Numbered from the stretch's first letter, positions 282-33,419 are shown. The stretch: 64,000 bases of DNA from Promethearchaeati archaeon SRVP18_Atabeyarchaeia-1 (GCA_037308085.1 CP147779.1:1344001-1408000); one strand, 5' to 3'. The notes: generated by a model from the sequence alone, not told the origin. Numbers and translations are program-made.

Positions 282-1496
282 ATGACTGCCTACAACGCCA
301 TCCTCAACACCATGCTGCAGGGCATCTGGCAGGCGAGAGAGTGGAGGAAACACCAGATCAAGGGCAAGAAGCAGTGTAGGCTCTACCCGCGATACAGGAA
401 GGACAACGCCTTCAAGCGCGAGCTGAGAGACACTTGCTTGGGAGGATGGGTCTACGCTGCGCACTGGGTTGACTCCGCCTTGAAGACAGCCTTCAGCATC
501 ATGGCCTCCTGGAGAAGGAACTACGACAAGGGCGAGAGGAGTAGGACATGCCCACATGTGGGACGGCTCTTCCTGCGGGCAAAGCAGACCCTCCTCAAAC
601 TCGAAGGCGAGGAACTAAGGATCACCGTGAAGCCACACGAGTTCGTTCACATCGACTTGTCCAGGCGCTACTTCAATCTGCCCCGCAACGTATCCTCCGC
701 GGGCCTAGGAGAACCCATCATCACACGCGACAGGATACACCTTCCCGTCCACGTGCCGGAAGAGGCTGGGAAGAGGCCCGCCGAGGCGGTGGCGTGGGAC
801 TCGAACATGCTCAGCATGGACGGCTACAGCCCCGAGACCGGATGGGTGAAGGTCGACACGAGGAGGCTCGCCTCCATCCACATCTCAGCCTTCGAGAAGA
901 GGCGCAGCGTGCAGAGAAAGGCCTCAAAGTCGAAGAAGGCGAAGAGCACCCTCACAAAATACGGGAGAAGGGAGAGGCACCGCGCCAGGAAGCACCAGAT
1001 GGAGATAGCGAGAGTGATGCGCTCCCTGTCCAGCAGAAACGGCTTCGAGAAACTGCACAAGGAGCGACTATACTCCAAGTCGAGGGTGTGGAACAGGCGA
1101 GTAGCGCGCACGGACTGGCGCGGAATAAGGAGGCTTGCAGGAGGCGTTGAGGTGCCTCCGCAGTTCACTTCGAAGACGTGCTCCAGATGCGGGTGGATAA
1201 ACAAAGACCTAAGAGGAGAGACAGTCTTCGAGTGCGACAACTGCGGTCTTCGGATGGATAGGCAGCTCAACGCAGCCATCAACCTCTACCTGAGGATGGA
1301 GGGCGTTCCCCACGAGAAGGAGCTGTGGGATGCAAGGATCCTGCCAACGCTTCTGAGGGTGGGTGGGTACGCCCTGACGGGGGCGGAGCGGAGGGGTGCC
1401 GATGAACTCGTGAGGCGCCTATATGATGCGGTGAAGCCCCAGATCTACGTGGAATACGATAGGCATGCTGACACATACCTACCTATGCCTACGTAG
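282..1496 (+). CDS. tnpB: TnpB (RNA-guided endonuclease family), RuvC-III Asp replaced by Gln; N-terminus probably frameshifted
   Basis: RuvC-I AWDSN, RuvC-II GFEKL, zinc ribbon TSKTCSRCG...FECDNCG, RuvC-III MDRQLNAAINL; downstream of IS607 tnpA remnant. Confidence 0.9.
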   Translation: MTAYNAILNTMLQGIWQAREWRKHQIKGKKQCRLYPRYRKDNAFKRELRDTCLGGWVYAAHWVDSALKTAFSIMASWRRNYDKGERSRTCPHVGRLFLRAKQTLLKLEGEELRITVKPHEFVHIDLSRRYFNLPRNVSSAGLGEPIITRDRIHLPVHVPEEAGKRPAEAVAWDSNMLSMDGYSPETGWVKVDTRRLASIHISAFEKRRSVQRKASKSKKAKSTLTKYGRRERHRARKHQMEIARVMRSLSSRNGFEKLHKERLYSKSRVWNRRVARTDWRGIRRLAGGVEVPPQFTSKTCSRCGWINKDLRGETVFECDNCGLRMDRQLNAAINLYLRMEGVPHEKELWDARILPTLLRVGGYALTGAERRGADELVRRLYDAVKPQIYVEYDRHADTYLPMPT

Positions 1497-1526
1497 ATTG
1501 AAACCCCTTTCGCCAAATGATTATTG
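1300..1526 (+). ncRNA. Predicted omegaRNA (scaffold overlapping tnpB 3' end, guide about 1507-1526)
   Basis: 3' ~200 nt strongly conserved with copy 2. Terminal stem ATCTACGT/ACGTAGAT (1443-1450/1491-1498) followed by GAAACCC. The 5' boundary is approximate. Confidence 0.6.
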
Positions 1527-3387
1527 ATTCTTCCTTTATCCTGTTGCCTGCTTCTATCTTGGAGATGTTGTGAGGCAACTCGTATTCGAGCGTGAACCCA
1601 GCCTGTTCTCCGATGTCTATGAGGGCTTGTGCACCATCCAGTTGCACATTTCTATTACCCAGTTTCCAATGATGATACTTGCCGACCACAAAGATAGTTC
1701 TTCTTCCCTCATTCAGCGCTTCAAAAAAAGCGTGAAGACAGTCACTCATATCATTCAGGTAGTGGAGCACGATTCTTGCCTTCTTCTCTCTTCCTACGCG
1801 CAATAGTTCCCGAATAATTAGCTGGCTCGAATCGGGCAAAAGATCATACAGAAAGAGGTCGGCGTCGCTCGCGGCCCTCTTCCTCGACCCAATGATCCCA
1901 TCTTGAAGTCGCCCGTCTTCCACATCTAGCCCAAGGAGGGCAATAGGCAGACTAGAGGAGTCGTGGTAGTCAAGCGCATCGAAATATGGCGGGGAGGTGA
2001 CTATCCCATCAACCTTGCCATCTAAAACCGTGTTCACGCTCCAAGCAGTATTCGTGAATAGCGTACATCTGCCCTTCACATGGACCCCCAGATCAGACAG
2101 GATCTTCTGCGAAGCATAGGCGTACAAATAGAAATCCACGGCATCCCTGATGAAATCGTGCGCCATCGCCTTGTTCTTCTTCTGCTTCGAAGAGAGACCC
2201 ACAATTGAACGGCTAAGCATGGTGTACAGGAAGTCCTTAATTAAAGGGTCGCTGGACAGTTCATCGATTCTATCCTTTATCGAGAGTATCTGGAAGACCG
2301 CAGCCCCATTACCTAGTACCCTCGTCTTATCCTTGGTCTCCAAACGAGCAAGAGTTTCGTCTAGCCTCGCGTCGTTGTTCGAACTGACTGGTTCTCCATT
2401 ATCCAGCTTGAGAATGGCTTGCCTCAGATCTGTCAATGGGATGTTGACGAGGTTGCACTTCACTCGCGATATCATGGTCGAAAGAGGGTTTATGTCTATA
2501 CCAACCGCGTTGATGTCCAGAAAAGGTGCGTCAGCCAAAAATGTTCCTGAGCCGCAAAACGGATCAAGGACTGTGCAACCTTCTTCGACTCCCAACATAT
2601 TGAGACACGATCTTGCTAGCCAAGGATCGGCTTTTCCCTCATGCTTATGGATGAAATGAAGGCCCCATGTGCGAAAGTCTGAGAAAGCCCAGTCCACGTA
2701 GTCGCCAATATGATCCTTGAATAAGCCAAGCCAAGGCATCCTCTTGACTCCAAGTCTCAGGTGCTGAAGCAGTTCGTCTAGTCCCTTCTCAACTCCCTTT
2801 TCCATCTTCTCGAGTTTCTCACCGAGATCCGTGAATTGCCGAGTGAACGTGACATAGGGTAGCTTAACAACTTCTGAAGCATACTCCAGCAACGTCTGGA
2901 TAGGAGTCGAAAGAACCGTGGTCAAGTAGGATTCATCATCAAGCCTCTGGTTGAAGACTTGGACGCTGGGCGAGATGTCAATGAACCTATTTTCATCATA
3001 AGTGCCTCGTTCCTGAGGATCGCTCGAGCCAAGCGCGACCGCGACTTCGGGGAGCTCGTCCTCCGAAGTCAGCAGAACTGCATAGATCTCCCTTAGATAA
3101 GTCGCGCCCTTCGCGAGCTTGACCAGGCTTTGGAGACTACGAAGACCAGCAATGAAGCCATGCACTCTCCCCAGATAGAGTAGCCTCGTCATGCGGTCAA
3201 TGATCCTATCATCTAGGCTGGAGAATGGATACTTTCGGAACAGGGTCGGAAGAACCTCGAGATCTGTAACAGAGGTTCCCAGTATCTGCTCTGTCTCCCT
3301 TCTCGCAAGATCGACTTTGCTCTCGACCCTGATGTCATGTTTGAGCTTGCAAATACAGTATGCTTCCCGCAAGAAGAGATCCTCCAC
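1489..3387 (-). CDS. Orphan amino-methyltransferase (N4-C/N6-A type) with ~230-aa N-terminal extension
   Basis: Motif I VLDPFCGSGT, motif IV VTSPPY, C-terminal FVVG...ESIIIW; last codons (FQST*) lie inside the IS right end. Confidence 0.8.
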   Translation of the reverse strand: MEDLFLREAYCICKLKHDIRVESKVDLARRETEQILGTSVTDLEVLPTLFRKYPFSSLDDRIIDRMTRLLYLGRVHGFIAGLRSLQSLVKLAKGATYLREIYAVLLTSEDELPEVAVALGSSDPQERGTYDENRFIDISPSVQVFNQRLDDESYLTTVLSTPIQTLLEYASEVVKLPYVTFTRQFTDLGEKLEKMEKGVEKGLDELLQHLRLGVKRMPWLGLFKDHIGDYVDWAFSDFRTWGLHFIHKHEGKADPWLARSCLNMLGVEEGCTVLDPFCGSGTFLADAPFLDINAVGIDINPLSTMISRVKCNLVNIPLTDLRQAILKLDNGEPVSSNNDARLDETLARLETKDKTRVLGNGAAVFQILSIKDRIDELSSDPLIKDFLYTMLSRSIVGLSSKQKKNKAMAHDFIRDAVDFYLYAYASQKILSDLGVHVKGRCTLFTNTAWSVNTVLDGKVDGIVTSPPYFDALDYHDSSSLPIALLGLDVEDGRLQDGIIGSRKRAASDADLFLYDLLPDSSQLIIRELLRVGREKKARIVLHYLNDMSDCLHAFFEALNEGRRTIFVVGKYHHWKLGNRNVQLDGAQALIDIGEQAGFTLEYELPHNISKIEAGNRIKEESIIIWRKGFQST

Positions 3388-3593
3388 TCCGAAATGCGCT
3401 CCCTGTTTCTAGTTTGACTTGTGAACAATCGGTTATTGGATAACGGCATACATAACTCTACCGAGGATAATGGAGATTTGGTAACAAACTCTATCTACAA
3501 TCCTTATTATCGTGCGGATGAACCGTACGCTTACAGAGAAAAGTCAAAAAGCAACCATCAGCAACTAGTGTGTAGCGGAAGGAGAATCCACAC

Positions 3594-6068
3594 ATGCCCA
3601 AGGAGAAAAAAGTGATCAGAATAGGTGGCATGCACTGCGCAAGCTGCGCTCAGACAATAGAGCGAGGCCTAAAGAAGGAGCCGGGGATAGTCAATGCTAG
3701 CGTAAGCTACGCGACAGAGAAAGCTATCATTGAGTATGATCCATCAAGGGTAAATCTGCAGAGGATCGGAAAGGTCATAAAAGACGCAGGATATGAACCT
3801 CTTGACATCTCGGAGAAAGGTGAAGAGAAAACTAGAAAGGTCATAATGAGAATCACTGGGATGCACTGCGCCTCCTGCTCAGCCACTGTGGAGAGAAGTC
3901 TGAAGAAACTCCAAGGTGTGAAATCAGCCAACGTCAACATAACAACTGAAAAAGCAGTAGTGGAATATTATCCAAAAAGGGTCTCAATGCCTGATCTTAG
4001 AAGAGCAATTGAGAAAGCTGGTTATGGGGTCGCCTCGGAGGAAGAGGTTGACATTTCCGTGGAGGAAATGAAGCGTGCCCGGAGAAGGATGATTGTGGCA
4101 TGGCTCTTCACCGTACCGATCATTTCGTGGATGATCCCAGACATGGTCTTTGGAATCTCCTGGCCGGACGCGATTATCTACAATCTGGGTATCATACTGC
4201 TCGCAGCACCAGTAATCTTTGGCGCTGGCTTCGCGACTCTTCGTTCCGCTTCTAAATCAATTATCCACAGGGACGCAAACATGGACGTCCTAATAATGAT
4301 GGGAACCACAATATCCTTTCTGACAGGTCCCCCCTACTTTTTCACGTCGATTTGGAACTATGCCGGAGTAGGAGGGATGATCATGTCTTTTCACCTCACT
4401 GGCAGATACGTGGAGGCCAAGGCGAGGGGAAAAACCTCACAGGCGATTCAGCGCCTCATGAAACTCGAAGCCAAGTCCGCCAGAATCCTGGTCCGTGGAA
4501 AAGAAAAGGAGGTGCCAATCAATGAGGTGAAAGTTGGAGACGTCATGATCGTCCGACCAGGGGAGAAGGTGCCGACTGACGGCCTAGTCATCGATGGCGA
4601 AAGTTCCGTTGACGAATCTATGGCGACTGGCGAATCCATGCCAACGACGAAGAGAGCTGGCGATCAAGTAATCGGTGCAACCGTAAACCAAGAAGGTCTG
4701 CTGAAAGTGAGGGCTACAAAGATTGGAGCAGATACATTCCTCTCACAGGTGATAAGAATGGTTGAGGAAGCCCAAGGAACCAAAGTCCCCATTCAAGAGT
4801 TCGCGGACAAAGTCACGAGATACTTCGTTCCCACGATTCTGCTAATAGCCCTCTCGACCTTCATCCTATGGATGGCAATCCCGCACGTCATGGATGTGGT
4901 GGCCACCTTGGCAAAGCCATTCTTGGGCTGGATTCAGCTAGGTCAGCCAACTTTCATGCTCGCGATCTTCGCCACCGTCGCGACTCTCGTTATCGCATGT
5001 CCCTGTGCGCTGGGCTTGGCGACTCCTACGGCGCTCATGGTTGGGACTGGAATGGGCGCTGAGCATGGTATCCTCATAAGAAAAGGCGATGCCATACAGA
5101 CGATGCGGGAAGTGAAAGCTATAATTCTTGACAAAACTGGAACCCTCACAAAAGGGAAACCTGAGGTAACAGATGTTGTATTTCTCGACACAGATCTCAG
5201 GGGCGAAGAGAAAGTCCTCTACTACGCAGCAAGCGTAGAGCAGGGCTCTGAACACCCCTTAGCCCAAGCAGTCGTTGAGAAGGCAAAAGAAAAGAAGATC
5301 AAGTTAGACCTCCCCAAGTCCTTCAAGGCGATAAGTGGAATGGGAGTACAAGGCTTCGTGAATGGTGACGAGGTTCTGGTCGGGAAGCCAGAAATGCTCG
5401 GATCCAATGCCATGACTGCTAAAGCTGACAAAGTATTTGGGAAACTCCAAAAACAAGCCAAGACAACTGTGGTTGTGGCAGTGAACAAGAAACCGGTTGG
5501 CATAATAGCCATCGCGGATACCCTCAAAGAAGATAGCGCAGACGCCATACGGGATATAGAGAGAATGGGGCTGAAAGCGATTATGCTGACAGGCGACAAC
5601 AAGAGAACCGCTAAGGCGATAGCAAAACAGGTAGGGATAAGCGAAGTCTACGCGGAGGTCATGCCAGACGAGAAGGTTGGCGTTGTCAAGAAAGCGCAGG
5701 AAGAATACGGTACAGTGGCAATGGTGGGCGACGGCATAAATGACGCGGCTGCAATAACTCAGGCAAATGTTGGCGTGGCTATTGGCACAGGAACAGACAT
5801 CGCCATAGAAGCTGGCGATATAATCCTAGTTAAAGGCGATTTGTCAGGGCTGCTTAGTGCAATTAAACTATCAAAAGCCACCTTCAGGAAGATTAGGCAG
5901 AACCTTTTCTGGGCACTCATCTATAATGTTGTAATGATACCACTAGCCATCCTGGGTCTACTGCACCCTGTATTGGCGGAGGTATCCATGGCTCTGAGCT
6001 CAATAACGGTAGTTGGAAACGCTAACCTATTAAGGAGAGCGAGCATATCCCCAACATACTCAAAGTAG
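3594..6068 (+). CDS. copA: Cu(I)-translocating P1B-type ATPase
   Basis: Two GMHCASC heavy-metal domains, TGES, CPC, DKTGT, SEHP, GDGIND, YN and MALSS motifs. Confidence 0.95.
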
Positions 6069-6180
6069 AAATACTTGAGACGCGCTAGAGGAATTCGGTC
6101 AGAAAACAAGACTCAGGCGGAGCGATGGCCGAGACTTGTGCAGATGGTTTCTTGAGAAAGGGATAGGGAGGTGAAACGGC

Positions 6181-6327
6181 ATGGCGAGAGACCCAGTCTG
6201 CGGCATGGAAGTCAAAGAGAGAACCGCTAAGTTCAAGTCCCAATACAAGGACAAGACCTACTACTTCTGTGCAAAAGGATGCAAAGACAGATTCGATTCG
6301 GAACCACAGAAATACATTAAGAAATAA
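6181..6327 (+). CDS. YHS/TRASH-domain metallochaperone (48 aa, not in ORF track)
   Basis: MARDPVCGMEV...YYFCAKGCKDRFDSEPQKY; GGAGGTGA SD upstream; follows copA. Confidence 0.9.
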   Translation: MARDPVCGMEVKERTAKFKSQYKDKTYYFCAKGCKDRFDSEPQKYIKK

Positions 6328-6479
6328 GAAACTGGCATGACCACAATCTAGTACACACCTCTCTTATCCGAGTTCCGAACCTCCTTTCTACTTTTTTCTT
6401 GCTAGGTTTCTATCAATACCTTCCACGTACTCGGTAGAACCCCAATTGCGATTCGGAGCAATCAGCGAGATGGGCAATT

Positions 6480-7334
6480 ATGGATGCAAAGCTACGTGCA
6501 AAATATGAGAAGCTGAAAAGTTTTATTCGGGAGAAAGGCGGGGATGGGGCAATAGTCGCCTTCTCCGGCGGAGTGGACAGCTCGACACTAGCTGCGGTCT
6601 GCCTCGAAATACTGGGAGACAGAGTTGCCGCCGTAACAGCAAAATCAGCAACCTACCCATGCGAGGAACTTGACGAAGCGAAGAAAGTCGCGAAGGAAAT
6701 CGGGGTCAAGCACTGCATCGTGGAGACAAACGAGCTTTCAAACGAAGACTTCTTGAGAAACCCCGAGAACAGGTGCTACTACTGCAAAAGCGAACTGCTA
6801 GACGTGTTCAAAGACTCCGCAGCCAGACTCGGGTTCAGAGTCATCTTTGAAGGCACCAACTACAGCGATCTGAGTGGGCACAGACCGGGATTTAAGGCAG
6901 TCAAAGAAAGAGAGTACGTCTTAAGCCCGTGGGTCGAAGCGAAGTTCAAGAAGGAAGACATCAGACAACTTGCGCGCGAACTCGGACTGTCTGTTCATGA
7001 TAGACCTGCATCACCCTGTCTGGCCTCAAGAATACCCTTCGGACAGCGGATCACGGAAGAACGCCTTAGGAGAGTTGAAGCGGCAGAGAAGGCAATAAGA
7101 GAAATCGTAGAAGTGAAAGAACTACGTGTTCGAGACCATGATGGCTTGGCGAGAATCGAAGTGGGGAGGAATGAGCGTGATCTTCTTTTCGATGCAAAGA
7201 TCATGGATCGAATAGCAGAGCAACTAGAAAAGCTTGGGTTCAAATTCGTGACAATGGACATGGCCGGATACAAGACAGGCAGCATGCTCAAGCTCGTCGA
7301 GAAGCAGACTCACGACAGCAGGCATCTTACCTGA
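6480..7334 (+). CDS. larE: LarE-family ATP-dependent sulfur transferase
   Basis: PP-loop AFSGGVDS, RCYYCK, HRPG, PCLASRIPFG, LRVRDH. Confidence 0.9.
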   Translation: MDAKLRAKYEKLKSFIREKGGDGAIVAFSGGVDSSTLAAVCLEILGDRVAAVTAKSATYPCEELDEAKKVAKEIGVKHCIVETNELSNEDFLRNPENRCYYCKSELLDVFKDSAARLGFRVIFEGTNYSDLSGHRPGFKAVKEREYVLSPWVEAKFKKEDIRQLARELGLSVHDRPASPCLASRIPFGQRITEERLRRVEAAEKAIREIVEVKELRVRDHDGLARIEVGRNERDLLFDAKIMDRIAEQLEKLGFKFVTMDMAGYKTGSMLKLVEKQTHDSRHLT

Positions 7335-7362
7335 AACTGGGGTCGAAGACAGATGTCCAATC

Positions 7363-8157
7363 TCACCTTGCGCTTGGCTTCTCGCCCATGAATAAGCCAA
7401 GGTTTATGAGCGACCTGAAAGAGCGCGTTGTCAGGTGTCTGAATCCACTTTTTTCAATAAGCCTTGTCCAGTACTCCTTGGGCTTCCAGACGAGGGCGAA
7501 CAATAGGACGGACAGCGCCAGCTTTTTGTTTCTCAGAATTTCAACTGTCGCAAACTTGCCGCCCGGTTTAAGAACTCGATAGACCTCCCGCAGAGCTTTC
7601 TCCTTATCCTGTTCTCTGTGTAGTTCATGTGGCACGGAGCCCATGGTTACAAGATCAAATGTGCTATCTTCAAAAGGTATTCTCAAGGCATTTCCGTATC
7701 TGAAGTCCACCTTTTCGGCTACACCTTCCGCATTTGCATTCTTCATGGCAGTATCGGGCGACCTGCCGCTAACGCCCCCAAAAATATCAATGCCCACCAC
7801 TCTACCCTTTTGGAGTCTTTTCGCCAAACTTATGGACACTCTTCCAGTTCCACATCCAACATCGAGCACCATTTCATTCCCCTGCAATGCCGACAGATCT
7901 GCAATCCTTGACCAGTTGTCCCCATGCCGCTTCGCTTTGAAGGCTTTCTCATAGAGAAATATGTAAGCAACGCCAATGTATAATCCGACAAAGGCAACAG
8001 GCGCCCCAAGCAGTACTAGCACCCACTTGACAGGAGGACCTAACGAGAGCAATGAGGGGGTAACTGCCAAAGCCAACCCGATGAGGCCTATTATTGCCAT
8101 GGAGGCAAAATACCTCCAAGCTACAAAACCATAACTGGGCTTTCCAGACGAATCCAA
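7363..8157 (-). CDS. Membrane-anchored class I SAM-dependent methyltransferase
   Basis: Two N-terminal TM helices, VLDVGCGTG, PFEDSTFDLV, RVLKPGG. Confidence 0.85.
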   Translation of the reverse strand: MDSSGKPSYGFVAWRYFASMAIIGLIGLALAVTPSLLSLGPPVKWVLVLLGAPVAFVGLYIGVAYIFLYEKAFKAKRHGDNWSRIADLSALQGNEMVLDVGCGTGRVSISLAKRLQKGRVVGIDIFGGVSGRSPDTAMKNANAEGVAEKVDFRYGNALRIPFEDSTFDLVTMGSVPHELHREQDKEKALREVYRVLKPGGKFATVEILRNKKLALSVLLFALVWKPKEYWTRLIEKSGFRHLTTRSFRSLINLGLFMGEKPSAR

Positions 8158-8163
8158 TGTAGT

Positions 8164-8421
8164 CTAGTCCCCCTTCTCCGATTCCTCCTCTTTTACTCTG
8201 CTTCCAATAACACCTAAGATCTTCAATGCGACATCCTTCATAATGCTGGCCTTCTGGATCGCTAACCCTTTCTTTATGTCCCCTGCCACAAGGAGCTTGT
8301 CGCCAGGCTTGATGTTGAAGTGCCTCCGTGCCTCGATTGGCAATACTATCTGGCCCCTTTCACCAACAGTGACGGTTCCGTAAAGGAACTTTCCTTTCGC
8401 AACTTCGGTCATGATCCCCAC
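8164..8421 (-). CDS. AbrB/MazE/SpoVT-family DNA-binding protein
   Basis: GTVTVGERGQIVLPIEARRHFNIKPGDKL. Confidence 0.9.
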   Translation of the reverse strand: MGIMTEVAKGKFLYGTVTVGERGQIVLPIEARRHFNIKPGDKLLVAGDIKKGLAIQKASIMKDVALKILGVIGSRVKEEESEKGD

Positions 8422-8430
8422 CAGATGAAA

Positions 8431-8502
8431 TCATATAGGGCATGTAGGTCATACTAATCATGCTAATCATACTAATCATACAAATCATACCAATCATAAC
8501 CC
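8431..8502. repeat. Tandem array of eight 9-bp units (consensus TCATACTAA), probable operator
   Basis: tcatatagg gcatgtagg tcatactaa tcatgctaa tcatactaa tcatacaaa tcataccaa tcataaccc; lies between TATA-like ATTTAAAT (8511-8518) and the AbrB start. Confidence 0.85.
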
Positions 8503-8715
8503 TTTGCATCATTTAAATGTTGTGGAAGCGGTGGGCACGGAGATAGAGGTGTTATTGGATGCAAGGTGCAGTGATTTTCCTCCGCGCTGCAGCAATAGCT
8601 CTTCGTTGAAACCCAAATACTGCGATTCGAGAGAGCACTTGCACAGAGTGTTAAATCCCTGTCTTGTGCATTGCATGATATGACACTTTTCTGGGCTACT
8701 GAGGGTGGGCTGTAA

Positions 8716-9234
8716 GTGATAAAGGCGATACTCTTCGACTTGGGGGACACGCTGATCACAGAAGAGAGCGTTGGCGACAAACACACTGCTGAAGCGGAGC
8801 CTCAGAAGGTCTCTCATGTAGAAGAAGTTCTCAGGCAACTTAGAGGGAAATACAAGCTTGGAGTTGTAACCAACACGACAACATCAAAGGAAGCAGACAT
8901 CAGGCTTGCACTCAGAAAGATCGGGCTAGAAGAGTACTTCGATACAGTTGTGACATCCGTTGATGTCGGCCGCGACAAGCCCGATCAGAAGATATTCACC
9001 GTGGCTCTGAAGAGACTTCACGTGAGGCCATCCGAAGCCGTAATGGTAGGCAATAGGATAAAGACAGATGTCCTCGGAGCAAACAAACTTGGTGTGATAT
9101 CAGTCTACTTCAAATGGAACGACCGGTACAAGGAAGAGGTCACTAGCTCTTTGGAATCCCCAAATTATACGATTGTTTCTCTTAGACAACTTCCAAGCAT
9201 CATCGGCGAAATTGAAAGAGAGAAACAAGAATAG
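8716..9234 (+). CDS. HAD-superfamily hydrolase
   Basis: FDLGDTL, VVTN, KPD, VGNRIKTDV. Confidence 0.9.
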   Translation: MIKAILFDLGDTLITEESVGDKHTAEAEPQKVSHVEEVLRQLRGKYKLGVVTNTTTSKEADIRLALRKIGLEEYFDTVVTSVDVGRDKPDQKIFTVALKRLHVRPSEAVMVGNRIKTDVLGANKLGVISVYFKWNDRYKEEVTSSLESPNYTIVSLRQLPSIIGEIEREKQE

Positions 9235-9338
9235 GGTGAATCTTTTTTCGGCGGGAGAAATGGCAAATCCGTGTTCAAATCCGGATTACTTTGGCAACGC
9301 AGTTAGGGGGGCTTAGCTTGATAATATCGTACCGGACC

Positions 9339-22599: not shown

Positions 22600-22627
22600 A
22601 CACCTTTCGGGTGGCAACAACTCGTTA

Positions 22628-23608: not shown

Positions 23609-24010
23609 TGGGACACTTCCTGTTAGGTCAGTCTAGGATCATGCGGTCAATCTTAGATTTCCTATCTCAATCCGATTACTCGTTTAAGGATGAAGGGCGC
23701 AATTCCTCCGGCGATACTGCAGCCCATCACCATTTTTGCGAACAGCTCATGATAAACTGCTTCAACAGAGATCACTTGACTCATCGATATTAGAGACAGC
23801 AGCCTTTTTGGTTCGAGGGAAACAAGTAGACTCGTTTGTGCGCGCTATTTGGTTCTGTGAGGGGAGCATGTGAGCCTGGACGCATTTAGTCACTTCCTCT
23901 GTGACCTAAGCGGAGGGTAGACGCTGAGAGTGCAACTTGATTAATTCCGGAATTACACATCACCCTCACGAAGAAGACTGGGGCATCTTTGCTCCTTATG
24001 GCGAGTCTCG

Positions 24011-25081
24011 TCAGCTTCCTTGGGCAGATATCTGATGCCCCCGGGATACATCCGTTGTGAACGTGTAGCGAGTTGATTGACTGTATGTCTCCCCAGGTCG
24101 AAGTACGATAGGAGGAAAGTCAGGATGATGAATGGCATCAGAAAACTGTTGAGTTTCAAGACAAAAAGCTTGATGCTTTATGCACGGCTTGTCCCAGGCG
24201 CTTCTTCCCTCCAAGTGATTCCCAGTGTAGAACACAATTGCTGGCTGGTCTGTCTCAACTGTCACCTTGCGCCCCGTGCTGGGGTCATATACCTGAGCGG
24301 CCAATCCGAACTTCATTCCTTTATCCAACACGTAGTTATGATCGATTCCGCCTAAGGCCTCTAGTGGATTCCTAAGCGACTTTCGCTCTCGAAAGTCGAG
24401 GGGTGTCTCTTCAACTCTGCGGAGCTTGCCGGTCGGAATCATCTCATCGTCGGTTTCGAGGTAGGTGGATGCCGCGATTGTCGCTTGGTGGCCATAGATT
24501 TTTGTGCCGACTCCAGCTAGGTTCCAATAGGTGTGGTTCGTAAGATTGACGATAGTTGGTTTGTCGGTTCTTGCCGAGTAATTGATCTCGATTTGATTTT
24601 CTGAGACCACGTACTTGACTTGGGTGCTAAGCGTTCCGGGATAACCTTCCTCGCCGTTCGGGCTAGTATATGAAAACTCGATTTTCGCCTTTTCGCCCTC
24701 CTCACCGAGGTTCCTGATTTCCCAGACCTTTGCGTCAAACCCCTCAAAGCCCCCGTGCAAGTGGTGCCTCTCAAGGTTATTCTTGGCTAGACTATAGGTC
24801 ACGCCATCGAGATCGAATTCCGCATTGGCGATTCGATTCGCGACTCTCCCAATAGTGCATCCGAAATAGGCTCTCTCCCTCAAGTATTTGTCTGAGGTAT
24901 CGTGACCAAGGGTGACCTCTCCGATGGATCCCTTCCTATCTGGGACTTTCGCTGAGACTATACGCGCGCCATAATTTGTTAGGGAGACCTCACCTTTGCC
25001 GAGCCCTGTGCTTATGGAAACCAGTTTGACCTCCTTGTGGCCGATTTTCCCCCAATACTTCGTGTTAATTTTTGGTTGCAT
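24011..25081 (-). CDS. galM: Aldose 1-epimerase (galactose mutarotase)
   Basis: GRVANRI, HLHGG, TNHTYWNL, FCLETQ; start placed at MQPKIN. Confidence 0.92.
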   Translation of the reverse strand: MQPKINTKYWGKIGHKEVKLVSISTGLGKGEVSLTNYGARIVSAKVPDRKGSIGEVTLGHDTSDKYLRERAYFGCTIGRVANRIANAEFDLDGVTYSLAKNNLERHHLHGGFEGFDAKVWEIRNLGEEGEKAKIEFSYTSPNGEEGYPGTLSTQVKYVVSENQIEINYSARTDKPTIVNLTNHTYWNLAGVGTKIYGHQATIAASTYLETDDEMIPTGKLRRVEETPLDFRERKSLRNPLEALGGIDHNYVLDKGMKFGLAAQVYDPSTGRKVTVETDQPAIVFYTGNHLEGRSAWDKPCIKHQAFCLETQQFSDAIHHPDFPPIVLRPGETYSQSTRYTFTTDVSRGHQISAQGS

Positions 25082-25186
25082 GATTGCCTCTTCCCTAGAG
25101 ATGCAAGCTGGTTGCATTATTCCTAAGCATTGAACCTCCAACAAGAAGGCAGGGAAGCCGAGTAGGTTGAAACTCTCTCCTTGACT

Positions 25187-25471
25187 TCATCTTAGTATGT
25201 CATGGATCCTGTTCAGAAGTTCTTTGATGTTCTCCGGTATGCTGTAACGGACCGTTAGCTGACCACCATTATTCAATGAGGGAACTTTCTGAACCATCTT
25301 AGCAGCTAGCAGGACCCTCAAGTGTTTTTCAATAGTTGATCTGTGTCGCTTCAGCTCCTTGGATATTTCACCGGGATTAGCCACTCCTTTCTGGATGCAC
25401 TCAAGGATCTGCAGTCTCGACTTGGAAGCTAGTGCTCGCAACATCCTCTCGGTTTTTCCGTAGTCACTCAT
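25187..25471 (-). CDS. ArsR-family winged-helix regulator
   Basis: ALASKSRLQIL...STIEKHLRVL. Confidence 0.85.
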   Translation of the reverse strand: MSDYGKTERMLRALASKSRLQILECIQKGVANPGEISKELKRHRSTIEKHLRVLLAAKMVQKVPSLNNGGQLTVRYSIPENIKELLNRIHDILR

Positions 25472-25683
25472 CGCTGATCACCCACGCTCGAGACTGGGCT
25501 TCTGCTAACTGGCATATTAATTCGCCAAACGGAAGATAAACATGCTGACTGGGACAAATGATTATCGGAACTGCTGGAAAGAGTTATCTCTGCTGACCCT
25601 TATCGCGGTGTTAATGCCTCATTTGAGGCGTTTCAAACCTATTTTCATCTGTGCCATTGGACTAGTGTTTCAAAGAGGAGAAG

Positions 25684-26508
25684 GTGAGTGCCATGGTATC
25701 GAAGGTTGCCATAGTCAAGATGAGTGGAGACACCGAAGCATCTTTCAGAGAGGCGCTCAGGCTCATCGGCGGCATAAGTGATCTCGACACAAAGGACAGG
25801 CAGGTAGTCATCAAGGTAGGTGTCTATGACCACAAAAAGAAGAACCACCCCTCGGTCGATGTCGTGGGCGCAATCATCCACAGCTTTGGCTCAGCCCCAC
25901 ATATATTCGTCGCGGAGTCAGACAACTATAGGGGAACAGGCTCAGAGCGACTTGGAATCTGGAAGCAGCTCTTCACTGACAGGGTTGTCCCATTCAACCT
26001 TTCAGAAGATAGTGACACCAAGCCGCTGGAAACCTCAAATGAGGAAATCGGCTTATCCCACGTACTCTTCAAACCCAATGTGCTGGTCAGCGCACATGTG
26101 CTACGTAAGTACGAGAGAGGTGCTGTCTTGAAGAACCTCTTCGGTCTTGTTCCAGATAGAAAGAAAGCAAGGTTCCACAAGGTTTTGGATAGTCTTCTCA
26201 TGGACATCTATGAGGCGATAGGTGGAGTGGATCTCGCAGTCATAGATGGGACGCAAGCATATGCAAGCGCAACTGATCCCAAAGGGAAAAGAACGAACAT
26301 ACTATTGGTCGGGAGAGATGCGGTAGCCGTAGAAGCAGTCGGGGCCTCCATCGTGGGGATGAGTCCAACCACGATCCCCGTCATACGTGAAGCAATAAGA
26401 AGGAACCTCGGCGAGGGCGACCTCAGCAGAATCGATGTCCTCGGAGAATCCATCGAAAACGTGAAGAAGAAACCCCGTGGGTCGTCGGGAGGAAAACCTG
26501 AGACGTAA
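25684..26508 (+). CDS. DUF362 domain protein
   Basis: VVIK, VAESD, LKNLFG, IDG, DAVAVE motifs. Confidence 0.8.
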   Translation: MSAMVSKVAIVKMSGDTEASFREALRLIGGISDLDTKDRQVVIKVGVYDHKKKNHPSVDVVGAIIHSFGSAPHIFVAESDNYRGTGSERLGIWKQLFTDRVVPFNLSEDSDTKPLETSNEEIGLSHVLFKPNVLVSAHVLRKYERGAVLKNLFGLVPDRKKARFHKVLDSLLMDIYEAIGGVDLAVIDGTQAYASATDPKGKRTNILLVGRDAVAVEAVGASIVGMSPTTIPVIREAIRRNLGEGDLSRIDVLGESIENVKKKPRGSSGGKPET

Positions 26509-27304
26509 CTTCAACTCTCTTCTTTCGTCTCCATTTGAGGTCAGCGGAGTTCTACATCGTCTCTATGAGTCAGAGTGGAAGGCTTCTACTTTAGGCCGAC
26601 TTCTGCATTAAGCCATCCATAGCACCGGCGGACCTGAGTGTTTGGGACTGTTTCTGAATTCGGTGATTGTCTTTAAATCGGATTTTCTTGCGCCTATCGA
26701 TTTAGATCCACAATTTGGCCAAGTTGAGCCTAGACGAAACTCAGATAAGTCTGAAAGTCTTCAATCGACTCAAATGAAAGGGATGGTGACTACTTCAGAT
26801 GCCAATGGTTCATGGTCCGAAAAGGTCTCGCAGGCAAATAAAAACCGAGGATGACGTTACGGGGAATCGGGCGCATCCTCACACGCGAGAAGAAGCCGAA
26901 GACGAAGTAGTAGACAAGTACGTCTATGAGGAAGGCTCCGAAGGTCCGGAATGACCCCAAGGTAAGTTGGAAACCTTTCTCCCAGTGAAGAGCACTAAGA
27001 GCGATAGAAGCTCCCTTAAATGTGGACATGTCCGCTCCTTGCGCAGGAACCATCGTTTCACGGCTTTCTGAGTTCCCTTAGAAGCGGTCACTCCTCATTC
27101 TGATGGAGTTCTGTTTCCGGATGAAGGGCTACTCTATCGCTCCTACCCGAGCCCTTGCGCACCCGACCCACGAGGTCAATCCTACTCTATCTGGGTCCGT
27201 ACCCACTCTTAAATAACAGTCCACGTATATTCACACCATCAGAGTGATTCGCTGGGAGGATGGATGCGCGAGGAAATAGGCTGAAGAAAAGAGGGTGCTG
27301 ATTT

Positions 27305-28687
27305 TTGGCGAAGACTCAAGTTGTAATAAGAGATATCTCAACTGACCCCGCTGACCGTCCGGCCTTCATGATGGATCTTGACCGAGCGGTCGAAGACATT
27401 TTTGTCGCATTCGGCGGAGGGTCTCAACTACTGAAGTCTAGTCGGGAAGTGTATCTTAAGCCCAATGCGATTGACGCGAAACCTTTCTGCTATACGCGCC
27501 CTGAGGTTCTGGAAGCAGTCATCCGCTACTTCTTCAAGGTAGGAGCCAGCGATGTCTACGTCATGGAGAATTCAACTCAAGGGAACTACACTCGCCTAGT
27601 CTTTGAGGCAATTGGATATACCGATATCTGCAAGCAGACTGGTGCCATGCCCATCTTTCTAGATGAAGAACCCACGGAGCGCTTTGAGTTCAAAGGTAAG
27701 CCACCTGCAAGGGGAAAGGACTCCACAGGTTATGATCTCACAAAATTCGAGATGCCTCATACCGTGGTTAAGGAGCTGATCAACCGAAAGAAGGAGAATC
27801 TCTATGTGAGCTTACCCAAGTTGAAAACTCATTCGATGGCTGGCGTCACGCTGGGAATAAAAAATCAATGGGCCTTCCCACGTCACCAAGATCGAAAATT
27901 CGACCATAACTATAATCTGCACTCCAAACTGGTCGATGTACTGGAGTACGTCCAGCCCGACTTCACCTTGATCGACGGGATCGAAGGGACGATTCATGGT
28001 CACTACCCGCCCACAGCAATTGCAGACAAACTCGTCAAGAAATTCAGAGTGCTGGTCGGTGGCAGGGACGTTGTTGCGACCGATATAGTTGGCGCGCGGA
28101 TCTTTGGGTTAACCCCAGAAGATGTTCCTCACTTGAAGATCGCCATTGAGCGCGGAATCGGCCTGGGAGTCAAGGGATTGCAGGACATAGAAATCATTGG
28201 TGACCTATCGAGGTTCAAAGAGAAGTACCCCACCGACCTCTATCCCGAGTTCCCTCCTGATGTCGAGATAGTCCAAGGATCGAAGCAAGCCTGCCGAGAG
28301 GGCTGCAAGAATAACCCTCTTACTTTACTTCAAGTTCTATACCTGGACTTCGGTGGGAAAGGTGGCTTCCAACTTGTCATCGGAAAAGGGCACCAACCGA
28401 CGGTCATCGATCGACTTAAGGGACCGGTTCTCGTCGCAGGTCATTGCGCAATCGAGGAGGTTGGCGAAAGGCTGCAACAGAGGCTCGGCAAGAACAGTGT
28501 ATACTTCAGCGATGGATGCAACAATTTGGCGCAAACTGCAGGTGCGCTGCTTCCTCTAATGAAAGTAAGTCCGCAGCAACTGGTCCCTCTAAGTATGGAC
28601 AAAGCAACCCCGATAATACTTGAAGCAATAAAACGAGGAACTCATGCCATTGCGCCGAACATATCCACTTCGATCACGAAGAAGTAA
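27305..28687 (+). CDS. DUF362 domain Fe-S protein
   Basis: LKPN, PKLKTH, TLGIKNQW, DVVATD; C-terminal ACREGC, GHCA, GC. Confidence 0.85.
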   Translation: MAKTQVVIRDISTDPADRPAFMMDLDRAVEDIFVAFGGGSQLLKSSREVYLKPNAIDAKPFCYTRPEVLEAVIRYFFKVGASDVYVMENSTQGNYTRLVFEAIGYTDICKQTGAMPIFLDEEPTERFEFKGKPPARGKDSTGYDLTKFEMPHTVVKELINRKKENLYVSLPKLKTHSMAGVTLGIKNQWAFPRHQDRKFDHNYNLHSKLVDVLEYVQPDFTLIDGIEGTIHGHYPPTAIADKLVKKFRVLVGGRDVVATDIVGARIFGLTPEDVPHLKIAIERGIGLGVKGLQDIEIIGDLSRFKEKYPTDLYPEFPPDVEIVQGSKQACREGCKNNPLTLLQVLYLDFGGKGGFQLVIGKGHQPTVIDRLKGPVLVAGHCAIEEVGERLQQRLGKNSVYFSDGCNNLAQTAGALLPLMKVSPQQLVPLSMDKATPIILEAIKRGTHAIAPNISTSITKK

Positions 28688-28786
28688 GAAAGCCTCTATT
28701 ACTTGCTTTAAATGAATTAGAGATATCAATATAAGCCACTTGAATGGTAGAATAAGACCGTTTGTAGTAAGGAGGAACTGCGGAGA

Positions 28787-29413
28787 ATGCCATCAATATT
28801 GAAACGGATCTTTTCAAGGAAGCTGACTGCAATCTATGGATTGGTGGGACCACTGCTCACCTATGCCTTCATTTTGATAGCCATATCGCTGGCACCTTGG
28901 TTTAGCTGGACAGCCAATGCTCTCAGTGATCTTGGAAACATAGTCACGCACACAGCATCGGCTCCAGTTTTCAACTATGGGCTGATAATCGGCGGAGTGG
29001 TGATAACTCTCTTCGCAATCGGGATGGTGCTAGAGGTCAAGGGCAACATCATGGGCCTGTTGGGGGCACTGACATTGGTCACCTCCGGTCTTGGGATCTT
29101 CTTCGTGGGTGTCTTCCCAGAGAACTTCATACTTCAACACGTCATTTCCGCCTTTACGTACTTCATATCGATCATAGTCGGTTCGTTCCTCTTTGGCGTA
29201 GCCTATTCGACTCGCAAGTCCACTAGGTTTCTCGGCGTCCTTGTCTTCGCACTGGGAGTAGTAGCAGCATTCGGGCTGTTTCTACTTCCGATTCTCATCC
29301 AATTGCCTGGCGCCGCGATTCCGGAGATGATTGGGTCTGTCGCTCAATACATATGGGTCATAATAATCTGTGCGAGATTGCTGTCAGGAAAAAGTGCCAT
29401 ACCGAAGAAGTAG
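28787..29413 (+). CDS. DUF998-family membrane protein
   Basis: PWFSWTANALSDLG, VFN, VGVFPE, H, AIPE. Confidence 0.8.
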   Translation: MPSILKRIFSRKLTAIYGLVGPLLTYAFILIAISLAPWFSWTANALSDLGNIVTHTASAPVFNYGLIIGGVVITLFAIGMVLEVKGNIMGLLGALTLVTSGLGIFFVGVFPENFILQHVISAFTYFISIIVGSFLFGVAYSTRKSTRFLGVLVFALGVVAAFGLFLLPILIQLPGAAIPEMIGSVAQYIWVIIICARLLSGKSAIPKK

Positions 29414-29503
29414 GCAGGTATTCCGCATCGAACAAGGGAAACACGCCAAGATTAGGAACTCTTGCTGGGAACTACTTGGCTTGGACTCCAAAGTTGCAGT
29501 GGC

Positions 29504-30982
29504 TCAGTCCTCTCTTCTTAATTCGAGCTGGACTTGGGAAGGTTTCTTTCCAGCGATCCTTCTGTAAAGATGTTTCACATGGGCCAGCAGGTGGGCAAGG
29601 AACCTTTTCTCCTGCCTACGCGCTCTTTCCATGAAAGCTCGAGGAGAGAGCAATTCCGCCTTGAGCTCCCTCAATTCCTTTTTGGGCGCATATTTAGCGA
29701 AAATTGGAATTCCCACCACAATTAGGGCGAGTCCCAACAAGATTTGACTGACGCTGCACTGAGATATGATGTAAAGGGAAAAGATCACTCCCAGTACTGG
29801 AATCACCCTGCCTCCCCTGATACGAAAACTGGGTCGCCGATGCTTCCTTCGCAGAGAGAAGACCGAGGCACTAGTGGCAAGGTAGGCGACTCCCAAAAGG
29901 AAGACGGAGGTGGCAACAAGCAGGCTCAGACTGCCGAGTAGCGAGGCTATGAGCGCGGTGGTCGACTGAAACAGTATTATTAGGTAGGGTGTTTTGAATC
30001 TTCGATGAATCTTTGTGAAGGCACGCGGAAACAGACCGTCGACCGCCAAAGCGTACCCGAGGCTAGTAGTTCCTATCATTCCAGACTCATCTGAACCGGC
30101 GACAGAAATCAACGCCCCGATCCCCACGAATGTGCCGCCGATGAGCAGCCATGTGGGGTTGAAACTCAATACGAAAGCAGTCGCGGAGGCTAAGGGTGCG
30201 GTGTCCGAAGCCAACTGTATGGAAGGTCTGACTCCAAAAAGCACTGTGTTTGTAACCATGTAGAAGATGGTTACTATAGAGATTCCAAGCACGATGGCTC
30301 TTGGAATCGTTCTTCCAGGATTCTCTATCTCATCTGCCGGCAAGGTCGAAATCTCGAAGCCCGCGTACGCCCAGAAAATCAGGACCAGCGCCAAGCCGAA
30401 ATTCGAGTAACCGAAGGGTGAAAAAGGCGCAAAATTGGACATCGTCGCGACAGGATGCAGGACCATGAATATCAGTCCAATCACAGAGAAAAGAATCAGA
30501 GGTGAAAGCTTCACTAAAGTTAGTACGTCATTTGTTCTACCCGCCGATTTGGATCCAATTATGTTGCTTGTCGCCAGCACGGTCACAAATAACGCTTTGA
30601 TGATGATCTGATAGGTCAGAGAGAGATCTGGGAAAAAGAACATCAAGTACCGGACAAAAGCCACGGGAAAAACTGCAAGCGAAACCCATTCTGCGAGCCA
30701 TAGAGACCAGCCAACAATGAAGCCTGGAAAAGGCCCCCACGCTTCCTTGGCATAAGCGTATGATCCACCGACCTTTGGGACTAGAGCCGCACATTGTGCA
30801 AAAGCCAAGGCTATGACGATAGCCACGACTCCAGCCACCACCCAGACAAGGAGAGACGCGGGACCAAGATAGCCAGCCCCGAATGATGAAGCCACATAGA
30901 TGTCCGCTCCAACTATGGCTCCAACGACCAAATTCGTTACATCAAAGAGCGTGAGCTTTGATTGATTCTTAATCTTGGTCAT
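29504..30982 (-). CDS. APC-family amino acid permease
   Basis: GAIVGADI, GGSYAY, WAYAGFE, NPGRTIPRAI, TP. Confidence 0.9.
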   Translation of the reverse strand: MTKIKNQSKLTLFDVTNLVVGAIVGADIYVASSFGAGYLGPASLLVWVVAGVVAIVIALAFAQCAALVPKVGGSYAYAKEAWGPFPGFIVGWSLWLAEWVSLAVFPVAFVRYLMFFFPDLSLTYQIIIKALFVTVLATSNIIGSKSAGRTNDVLTLVKLSPLILFSVIGLIFMVLHPVATMSNFAPFSPFGYSNFGLALVLIFWAYAGFEISTLPADEIENPGRTIPRAIVLGISIVTIFYMVTNTVLFGVRPSIQLASDTAPLASATAFVLSFNPTWLLIGGTFVGIGALISVAGSDESGMIGTTSLGYALAVDGLFPRAFTKIHRRFKTPYLIILFQSTTALIASLLGSLSLLVATSVFLLGVAYLATSASVFSLRRKHRRPSFRIRGGRVIPVLGVIFSLYIISQCSVSQILLGLALIVVGIPIFAKYAPKKELRELKAELLSPRAFMERARRQEKRFLAHLLAHVKHLYRRIAGKKPSQVQLELRRED

Positions 30983-31549
30983 TTCCTTCTCCCAAGACGG
31001 CGGATACTCCTTATCATTTGATGCGCATCTTTCTAAAATACTTTAACTTCTTAACCATACGCATGTTTCGGACCGAGTTGGAAGCAGGAACAGGGTCAGG
31101 AACTGGACGATGCAGGTACAAGATCAGGAAAATGGAATCATACCGACCAGTTTGATACAACTGGTTTTTCCATCAAGTCCTCAGGTCTTGTGATTCTTGA
31201 ATATCTGACATGCCGTGATCTGCGCTAAGTAATCTCGAGAAATCCATAGAACTTGAGAAGAAGAGTCCCAACCGACTGAGTGGCATGGCTCGAATGTATA
31301 CAGAACTCGAAAATCTACAAGAGGCCCCCGAGAAGGATGGGCAAGCTTTTCAGAATGGCGCCTAAGGACAACTAAAGCTGACAGACCAAATAGCAGGAAA
31401 AAACCAAACCAAGAAAGCAACATGGCCTTGCATCTGCGAAATAGTCGAGCCGCGGAAAATCAAACAAGAAATAAAATCAGATGGAGAAAGTCGATTTCAC
31501 AGCGCAGAAAAGGGCAACAGCCTGGACCTTCCAAAAAGACCTAGACTAC

Positions 31550-31645
31550 CTAGGCCTTCTTCGGATGAGCCTTCTTCTTGTGCGTACCTAACTCCTTTTT
31601 CGACTTGAACTCCTCACCACATTCACACTTATACTTCTCGGGCAT
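31550..31645 (-). CDS. 31-aa single C2H2-type zinc-finger protein (not in ORF track)
   Basis: MPEKYKCECGEEFKSKKELGTHKKKAHPKKA*; SD GAGGTGA upstream; TATA box TTTATAAA 31685-31692. Confidence 0.85.
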   Translation of the reverse strand: MPEKYKCECGEEFKSKKELGTHKKKAHPKKA

Positions 31646-31684
31646 TCCTCTATCACCTCTGTTAGAGCCTAGGGGCAACTCCCC

Positions 31685-31692
31685 TTTATAAA
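31685..31692 (-). promoter_or_regulatory. Archaeal TATA box for the small C2H2 gene
   Basis: TTTATAAA about 40 nt upstream of ATG 31645. Confidence 0.6.
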
Positions 31693-32002
31693 TCTGAATA
31701 GTTCGCCTGGAGAACACTTCAGCAAATATACCTCTTCGCAGTGTCGGAACTTAAGACGTTAATCGGATGACAGATCGGTGAGTACGAACTATACGCGCAT
31801 CAACTACGGCATAGAGAACTTATGTATCCTCGGTATAGGCGCGAGAATCCTCCTGGCGATGCTCGGACAACGTGCTCGCGAAGATGAGTCGCGAACAACG
31901 GAATTCATCTATGGATGCGGGCTAAGAAGCAGAGAAACCACAATGCCGACCCCGGAAAAAAGTTGTGGGAGTAAATACGCGCGAGCCTATCTACTCTGCA
32001 TT

Positions 32003-32098
32003 CTACTTCTTGGTTGGATGCACTTTCTTAGTATGAGCATCCAGGTCCTTCTTGTTCTTTAGAGTCATGCCACAGGTCTGGCATTTGAACTCCTTGGG
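32003..32098 (-). pseudogene. Paralogous C2H2 zinc-finger gene with native start replaced by the tnpB element end (may be translated from ATG 32146)
   Basis: PKEFKCQTCGMTLKNKKDLDAHTKKVHPTKK*, canonical F-x-C-x2-C-x3-L-x5-L-x2-H-x4-H; begins exactly at the CCC ending the element. Confidence 0.8.
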
Positions 32099-32300
32099 TT
32101 TCGATCTACTTGGGCATAGGTAGGTATGCGTCAGCGTATCTGTCATACTCCATGTAGATCTGGGGCTTCACCGCTTCATGCAGGTGCCTCACGAGTTCAT
32201 CGGCCCCCTTCCGCTCCGCCCCCGTCTCGGCGTACCCACCCACAGCGACAAGAGAGGGTAAGACTCTTCGATCCCACCACGCCTTACTGTGGGGAACGCC
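32076..32300 (-). ncRNA. Predicted omegaRNA of tnpB copy 2 (guide about 32095-32076, AAGGAGTTCAAATGCCAGAC)
   Basis: Conserved with copy 1; terminal stem GATCTAC/GTAGATC then GAAACCC; 5' boundary approximate. Confidence 0.6.
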
Positions 32301-33419
32301 GACCATCCTCAGGTACAAGTTGACTGCGGCGTTAAGCTGCCTGTCTACTCGCAGACCACAGTTACCGCACTCGAAGACGGTGCTTCCTCTTCTTCTTGGG
32401 TCTTTGTTAGTCCACCCGCATCTGGAGCACATCCTCGAGGAGTACTGCGGGGGGAGCTCGACGCCACCTGCAAGCCTTTTTACTCCGCGCCAGTCGGTCC
32501 TCGCGATCCTCCTATTCCATAGGCGTGAGCCACCGTAAAGCCTCTCCTTGGCTAGCGCCTCAAACCCGTTGAGAGCTGCGACGCTCCGCACCACGCGCGC
32601 TATCTCCACCTGGTGCTTCTTCGCTCTGTTCCTCTCTCGCCTACGATACTTTCCAAGGACCCGTCTCACCTTCTTCGACTTGGAGGCTTTCCTCTGGACG
32701 TTGCGCCTCTTCTCGAACGATGAGATGTGTATGGATGCGAGGCTCCTCGTGTCTATCTTGACCCATCCAGTCTGAGGCGAGTACCCATCCATGCTCAGCA
32801 TGTTCGAGTCCCACGCCATCTTCCTCGCGACAGGTCGGGGTTCCTCGCCATCATCGCTGCTGTGGATCGGTAAGTACACTCTGGTTGGTGTTATTATTGG
32901 TTCTCCGATCCCGGTGGAGGACACCGAGTCTGGCAGCTTGAAGTATCGTCTGGAGAGGTCTATGTGCGCGGATCTGTGGGGCGAGAGGGTTATCCTCAGC
33001 GTGTCGCCTTCCAGTTTGAGGAGGGTCTGCTTGACCCGCGCGAAGGGCCTCTTCGCCTCTGGGCACCTCATCTTCCTTCTGCCCTTCAAGTAGTTCTTCC
33101 TCCACGAGCCCATTATGCCGTACGCGGTTTTGATTGCTGAGTCTACCCAGTGGGCGGCATAGCTCCACCTCTCCAGGTACTTGTCTCTGAGCTCTCTCCT
33201 TGAGGCTCCTCCGCTTCTCGCATGCGTCGGGATGAGTCTAACCTGCTTCTTGCCTTTGATTTTCTGGTGCTTCCACTTCATTGTGCGCCAGGTGTCCTGT
33301 AGGATCTGGTTGAGTTTCGCCCTGTAGTGCCAGAGCAGCTCTCTGAGCTGGTCTGCCTCGCTCTGCGTTCGGGTCTTAAGGTTCAGCGAATAGGTTTTGA
33401 GCGTCATCTGAATAGCCAC
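32106..33419 (-). CDS. tnpB: Solo TnpB (IS607-type), RuvC-III Asp replaced by Gln
   Basis: MAWDSN, GFEAL, SSRMCSRCG...FECGNCG, VDRQLNAAVNL; long stretches identical to copy 1; no tnpA upstream. Confidence 0.9.
   Translation of the reverse strand: MAIQMTLKTYSLNLKTRTQSEADQLRELLWHYRAKLNQILQDTWRTMKWKHQKIKGKKQVRLIPTHARSGGASRRELRDKYLERWSYAAHWVDSAIKTAYGIMGSWRKNYLKGRRKMRCPEAKRPFARVKQTLLKLEGDTLRITLSPHRSAHIDLSRRYFKLPDSVSSTGIGEPIITPTRVYLPIHSSDDGEEPRPVARKMAWDSNMLSMDGYSPQTGWVKIDTRSLASIHISSFEKRRNVQRKASKSKKVRRVLGKYRRRERNRAKKHQVEIARVVRSVAALNGFEALAKERLYGGSRLWNRRIARTDWRGVKRLAGGVELPPQYSSRMCSRCGWTNKDPRRRGSTVFECGNCGLRVDRQLNAAVNLYLRMVGVPHSKAWWDRRVLPSLVAVGGYAETGAERKGADELVRHLHEAVKPQIYMEYDRYADAYLPMPK

Follow-up and report, generated by a model that had tools for sequence, protein, structure and literature searches.

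Two tnpB genes were found in the window analysed here, a 64,000-nt stretch of Promethearchaeati archaeon SRVP18_Atabeyarchaeia-1 (GCA_037308085.1 CP147779.1:1344001-1408000). The triad of both products reads D-E-Q, and the canonical D-E-D is absent. The question raised by this locus is whether such proteins still cut DNA and, if they do, which residue stands in for the third catalytic Asp. The preliminary description had left two answers, a dead binder or a rearranged active nuclease using an additional Asp shortly after RuvC-I.

The motifs WDSNMLSMDG, GFE(K/A)L and DRQLNAA were present in both genes at the places given in that description, with the RuvC-I Asp and RuvC-II Glu intact, and the two proteins were 67% identical. 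The codons of D173 and D180 in copy 1 (798-800 and 819-821) are exactly +7 apart; in copy 2, the corresponding codons are 32810-32808 for D200 and 32789-32787 for D207. HMM alignment to ISDra2 TnpB paired the Glu with E278 and the Gln with D361, the third catalytic residue of that enzyme (PMC10097598). The +7 Asp aligned with the Ala of an ISDra2-like TnpB, a position at which canonical TnpBs have a small or hydrophobic residue. The window proteins matched PF07282 above the cut-off and the NCBIfam TnpB models only below theirs, and all four Cys of the C4 zinc finger were conserved.

Table 1. Features of the two tnpB loci (window positions; copy 2 residues are numbered from ATG 33407)
Feature	Position	Strand	Remark
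Remnant of decayed IS607 serine transposase gene (tnpA), C-terminal part	1..217	+	Resembles intact IS607 TnpA C-terminus
Native tnpB start (TTG) and first ~21 codons, copy 1	218..281	+	Out of frame
tnpB copy 1 ORF	282..1496	+	404 aa; probably N-truncated or pseudogene
Copy 1 RuvC-I motif D-x-N-x-x-S-x-D (D173, N175, S178, D180)	798..821	+	
Copy 1 RuvC-II Glu, E256 (GFEKL)	1047..1049	+	
Copy 1 Q328 at RuvC-III Asp position (DRQLNAA)	1263..1265	+	
Predicted omega-RNA scaffold, copy 1	1360..1505	+	Overlaps tnpB 3' end; ends at GAAAC + CC core
Predicted guide, copy 1	1506..1525	+	Host flank; antisense to methyltransferase 3' end
Predicted guide, copy 2	32077..32096	-	Codons 5 onward of interrupted C2H2 gene (rest to about 32003)
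Predicted omega-RNA scaffold and right end, copy 2	32097..32242	-	
tnpB copy 2	32106..33419	-	433 aa counted from ATG 33407; intact; without tnpA
Copy 2 Q357 at RuvC-III position	32337..32339	-	
Copy 2 RuvC-II Glu, E283 (GFEAL)	32559..32561	-	
Copy 2 RuvC-I motif (D200, N202, S205, D207)	32787..32810	-	
Copy 2 target motif and predicted TAM AGCC (CC core)	33463..33466	-	Rejoined flanks; GCC at related left ends

Read from ATG 282, the ORF of copy 1 is short of about 21 residues at its N-terminus, the native TTG, near 218, being put out of frame by an additional base in the A6 run 232-237. Two sequencing runs, each from a separate study, gave short-read contigs with this base; it was absent from one low-depth contig of another run, which possibly represents an in-frame allele or an error. 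With its native start out of frame, copy 1 is less suited than copy 2 as a protein for testing.

In a set of 121 close relatives, Gln occupied the RuvC-III position in 119 and His in 2, and Asp was never found there. The other sites (copy 1 numbering) were conserved in 119 (D173), 120 (D180) and all 121 relatives (N175, E256 and R327), with synonymous codons varying at the motif sites, and the eight near-full copies of the genome gave dN/dS values of 0.16-0.24. Judged from these alignments, Gln at RuvC-III is a selected clade trait, as had been proposed from the two window copies. The invariance claimed for the Asp 7 residues past the RuvC-I Asp was likewise upheld, in 120 of the 121 relatives and without exception in the wider clade of 37 clusters.

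Distant relatives were clustered at 70%, and trees were built without the motif columns by a quick tree search. The window proteins were placed in the 37-cluster clade (support 94; median identity 34%, range 20-70%), where D200, N202, D207 and E283 accounted for four of only 11 invariant columns. All six rows of the sister clade had Asn at +5 and Thr at +7 and kept the RuvC-III Asp.

The residue at RuvC-III was markedly associated with that at +7. For the 101 D-x-N clusters, those with a +7 Asp had Gln in 44 cases, His in 10 and Asp in 6; those lacking it had Asp in 34, His or Asn in 7 and Gln in none. Gln was always accompanied by the +7 Asp (44/44), and the pair was seen at about five places in the tree. 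Every row with the +7 Asp had Asn at +2, and no +7 Asp was seen in the D-x-G rows (0/56). The Pagel test for the +7 Asp and RuvC-III gave a likelihood ratio of 23.6 (4 df), reached by 0 of 148 simulations of the independent model (maximum 14.8), and by MI-APC position 207 was the top partner of position 357 (rank 32 of 56,953 pairs). An independent-pairs sign test, for which there were too few pairs, was not significant.

The change of Asn at +5 to Ser or Thr and the loss of a zinc-finger Arg, located 4 residues before the third Cys, covaried as strongly (LR 25.3 and 26.1). D207 may thus be just one of several changes in a remodelling, rather than the ligand. Covariation among aligned sequences is a sign of coupling and is silent on which residue binds metal.

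Two further TnpB families are present in the same genome. The second (near 54 k, 327 k, 656 k, 950 k, 1253 k and others) combines His at RuvC-III with the +7 Asp (DTNERSID / DRHVN), and the third (near 751 k, 1177 k, 1556 k and 1995 k) has both Asps, but with DRDRLAS. As test cases for the active-site swap, these families are natural intermediates.

An AlphaFold2 model of copy 2 (mean pLDDT 90) had the TnpB/Cas12f fold, with WED-REC-RuvC-TNB organization, and its best Foldseek matches were Cas12f and ISDra2 TnpB (E about 1e-11). In the model, strand 194-201 has D200 at its end, the strand beside it (205-210) contains D207, and helix 356-369 starts with Q357. RuvC-like folds mostly have Gly or Ala at +7, since this residue is turned towards the RuvC-III helix. 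D309, in an NKDL loop, was considered as an alternative third acid and rejected, being conserved in close relatives but not across the wider clade.

A comparable arrangement is known from the G20c large terminase nuclease, which has a RuvC-like fold and an extra Asp, D300, at +6 from the first Asp and adjoining the third. In crystals, one Zn ion is bound jointly by D300 and the third catalytic Asp, and the D300N mutant is near wild type, so that D300 is dispensable (PMC5389553). Unlike the window proteins, the terminase keeps its third Asp and is not RNA-guided. By analogy, this precedent supports the proximity of the two positions and cautions against taking an Asp of this kind to be necessarily catalytic. 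His serves as a metal-A ligand in Thermus RuvC (PMC5389553), which fits the survival of His rows without the +7 Asp.

Mutation of any D-E-D residue in ISDra2-type TnpB is reported to abolish cutting (PMC10705468). However, the Asn at RuvC-I +2 of the Fanzor1 protein SpuFz1 (N385) is a Mg ligand (PMC10432273), and GtFz1 cuts with D-E-N (PMC11423790). The D-E-D triad is therefore not strictly required, and the preliminary description had been too strict in stating that TnpB needs it. Fanzor1 proteins otherwise differ from the window TnpBs in being eukaryotic and larger, with a shifted RuvC-II Glu, Asn instead of Gln at RuvC-III and no described +7 Asp. The traits of Fanzor and pro-Fanzor (RIIr-5) proteins, a DPG RuvC-I and a C-terminally shifted Glu, were not found in the window proteins, which have D-x-N and Glu at the canonical position.

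We give somewhat better than even weight to an active nuclease whose third carboxylate would have moved to strand β2, with D207 replacing the lost Asp. This substitution is suggested by the covariation together with RNase H-fold precedent. Six clusters with both Asps, seven with neither, and the nearly unimpaired G20c D300N were counted against it.

The protein could also be an active nuclease in which D207 has a second-shell or structural role, the metals being held by D200, E283 and N202 together with the Gln amide or a water. This would agree with the activity of GtFz1 with an amide at RuvC-III, where N658D lowers activity, as well as with the terminase mutant and the six clusters with both Asps. 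It is nevertheless unlikely, because Gln occurs only with the +7 Asp and does so in several parts of the tree, because Asp was never replaced by Asn at this site in the 37-cluster clade, and because D-to-N substitution gives no rise in activity in Cas12a or ISDra2 TnpB.

The biology of the element bears on whether cutting is to be expected. The window tnpBs belong to non-autonomous copies of an archaeal IS607-family element of the ISC1904/ISSis5/MJ0013 group. The genome (2.8 Mb, one contig) contains eight near-full copies with different flanks, one 5' fragment and six right-end-only fragments. All copies end in GAAACC(C) just past the stop codon, after which the sequences diverge, and GCC precedes the left end in 36 of 38 related loci.

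Insertion sites were reconstructed from host reading frames. When the flanks of copy 2 were joined across the CC core, a 35-aa C2H2 zinc-finger ORF was restored, which fixes the bounds of this copy at 33462-32097 (1366 bp) and assigns the G of GCC to the target. The left end of copy 1 lies about 126 bp before the window, after CGCC, and rejoining its flanks gave the neighbouring methyltransferase a different C-terminus. Host frames were thus restored at both copies, with a CC core and without terminal inverted repeats or target duplication, as is characteristic of IS607. No empty site was found in 20 relatives, and no joint in contigs from four sequencing runs.

Several observations were made on the neighbouring genes. 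Copy 2 splits the C2H2 gene between codons 5 and 6 (33480-33463 and 32096-32003, minus strand); an intact 31-aa C2H2 paralogue (31645-31550, minus strand) is located about 350 bp downstream of the interrupted gene, and a similar gene is present in the same-genus genome L155. A methyltransferase-like gene (1489-3387, minus strand) has its last codons replaced by the right end of copy 1. Upstream of copy 2 and outside the element, a 135-bp stretch (33656-33518, minus strand) recurs at genome position 2660886-2661020 with 87% identity, and a BsaWI-like restriction endonuclease and an N4/N6 methyltransferase form a pair just upstream of this copy (34341-36368, minus strand).

Decayed serine-transposase genes were found upstream of copy 1 and of genome copy c1970, and tnpA was decayed or absent beside every copy in the genome. 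The remnant at copy 1 reads like the C-terminus of an intact IS607 TnpA. Intact tnpA genes of 200-209 aa were present in 8 related loci and also in ISSis5. A serine-recombinase TnpA overlapping the tnpB start, typical of IS607, was recognized in the remnants, the related loci and ISSis5. Two open serine-recombinase frames also occur elsewhere in the genome (1500766-1501182 and 1259204-1259569; 199 and 206 aa).

ISSis5 on a Sulfolobus islandicus plasmid and a copy in virus SSV10, whose flanks are different, shared 97.9% identity over 1941 bp. The same motif set was found in ISSis5, Methanocaldococcus records and ATSV records, and the TnpA of ISSis5 closely matched ISC1904 TnpA (PDB 3ILX). From these findings, the elements belong to an archaeal IS607 group that is already known and has moved recently. 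The ISSis5 TnpB has D-S-N-x-x-T-x-D, the Glu and DRQLNAS, with GCC before a similar left end; it is about 33% identical to the window protein, and the window copies differ in having no working tnpA. For the archaeal IS607 relatives, ISC1904/ISSis5 of Sulfolobus and MJ0012-MJ0014 (Pfam PF27234 MJ0013), only the transposase has been studied, and a literature search that covered few subscription papers yielded none on the TnpB.

The last ~150 nt of the copies had a conserved predicted fold, in which 8 of the 31 predicted pairs had changed on both sides. Sequence conservation stopped at GAAACC(C), and synonymous variation was lower in this tail. The tail is a predicted omega-RNA with a flank-derived guide, its fold and covariation being as expected of one. 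The six right-end-only fragments (about 85-280 nt, at 697.7 k, 742.8 k, 1437.6 k, 1708.7 k, 1944.9 k and 2291.5 k) may represent orphan omega-RNA loci with a function in trans.

The predicted guides differed at every copy, and no TAM-adjacent match in the genome exceeded that of random 20-mers, the best having at least 4 mismatches in 16. By this null result a fixed host target is rejected; cutting is not thereby proved.

A serine transposase moves elements of this kind into NGCC sites, with recombination at the CC core, and the predicted omega-RNA would be made from the 3' end of each copy, with the guide copied from the flank. If the reading with a relocated carboxylate is correct, TnpB would act as an RNA-guided nuclease cutting empty donor sites beside a GCC-type TAM, and this would keep the element in place, as with other IS607 TnpBs. 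In the active site, D200 and E283 would stay, N202 would help to bind metal like SpuFz1 N385, and D207, from the S/T-x-D motif of strand β2, would supply the carboxylate lost from the RuvC-III helix when Asp became Gln. A plausible path would lead from Asp to His, then through gain of the +7 Asp, and then from His to Gln, a direction that we infer only.

A functional parallel in these respects is CboTnpB of an IS607 IStron, which cuts donor sites to retain its element (10.1101/2023.11.20.567912). Both systems have a serine TnpA, a core dinucleotide common to the target and the right end, a flank-derived guide and a TAM (predicted for the window elements) corresponding to the target motif. CboTnpB uses a TGGG TAM and a GG core, whereas the window elements have NGCC and a CC core, and the intron is absent from them. 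Cleavage by CboTnpB has been demonstrated, whereas that by the window TnpBs is a prediction.

A protein that binds its RNA and target DNA and makes no double-strand break may also be considered. It might be a nickase, an RNase that processes the omega-RNA, or a one-metal DNA clamp resembling Cas12m2, the clamp helping the element by blocking or regulating transposition. Cas12m2 (PMC10442227) is likewise TnpB-derived with an altered triad; its conserved non-canonical triad is H-D-D, it binds a single Mg without cutting, and it is CRISPR-linked. RuvC-dependent guide processing alone could conserve the Asp and Glu, and the canonical Asp was lost together with the zinc-finger Arg. However, this Arg was also missing in 34 of 56 canonical TnpBs of the D-x-G, Asp type, and the carboxylate count of the window proteins is still three. 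As IS607 excision is scarless, donor-site cutting is moreover the known reason for keeping tnpB. A non-cutting protein is accordingly also rated as improbable.

A domesticated, nuclease-dead repressor serving the host, like TldR, is a far more remote prospect. TldR proteins (PMC10705468) are TnpB-derived with an altered triad, and tnpA decay beside open tnpB frames in most genome copies would suit such a role. TldR, however, has at least two triad changes, no transposon ends and fixed guides. The window TnpBs have one altered triad position, intact element ends, and guides that vary by copy with no self-target above chance; both copies are plain insertions into host genes, and autonomous, recently moved relatives carry the same motif. 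The TldR-like regulator was rejected on the single triad change, the intact ends and the copy-specific guides without self-targets. A domesticated role of copy 2, acting through its zinc-finger guide, was also rejected, as the 5' half of that gene lies just outside the left end. The dead-regulator half of the preliminary description thus fails on the one triad change, the mobility and the unfixed guides, and its SMD Asp stands, by phylogenetic covariation, as the best candidate replacement.

Decay or sequencing error, which the frameshifted start of copy 1 and an early stop in copy c343 might suggest, has a negligible probability and is refuted by Gln in nearly all relatives, from many samples and from cultured Sulfolobus and Methanocaldococcus records, and by a dN/dS of about 0.2.

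TnpB branches with similar alterations have been catalogued before. The main text of Altae-Tran et al. 2023 (PMC10691335) describes six large RuvC-III-altered branches of presumed activity, with Ser-6, MazE and RIIIr-6 nearly confined to archaea. The window clade resembles the RIIIr-# / Ser-6 / RIIIr-6 / MazE set presented there in its RuvC-III substitution conserved across the branch, its intact RuvC-I and RuvC-II, its archaeal hosts, its serine-recombinase link and its predicted activity. It is probably one of these branches. For RuvC-III, that main text names only an Asp-to-His change (RIIIr-4), without a compensating residue there; the compensating residue it names concerns RuvC-II. As described in it, RIIIr-4 has His and no zinc finger, whereas the window clade has Gln and an intact one.

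The existing catalogue limits the novelty, a point that the preliminary description had marked for checking. A literature search covering few subscription papers found neither a compensating Asp nor a tested TnpB of the Gln/His or ISC1904 type. The element is ordinary and its class was catalogued in 2023; the active-site swap is specific and apparently undescribed.

Surveys sort TnpBs into dead and alive by the D-E-D triad. A moved RuvC-II Glu has been shown to work in Fanzors, and the RuvC-III-altered branches were assumed to be active with no residue named. The present case offers a specific residue, a predicted NGCC TAM, a predicted omega-RNA and a cultured member in Sulfolobus islandicus. 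At about even odds, it represents a third way to build a TnpB/Cas12 active site, in which the metal-A carboxylate would have passed from the RuvC-III helix to strand β2 (RuvC-I +7) several times among archaeal TnpBs. If this is false, one would have to explain why a mobile element retains a TnpB that does not cut. If it is true, it would account for the continued activity of many 'RuvC-III-dead' TnpBs, correct how a large group of archaeal TnpBs is annotated and provide compact archaeal nucleases or editors with a GC-rich (NGCC) TAM.
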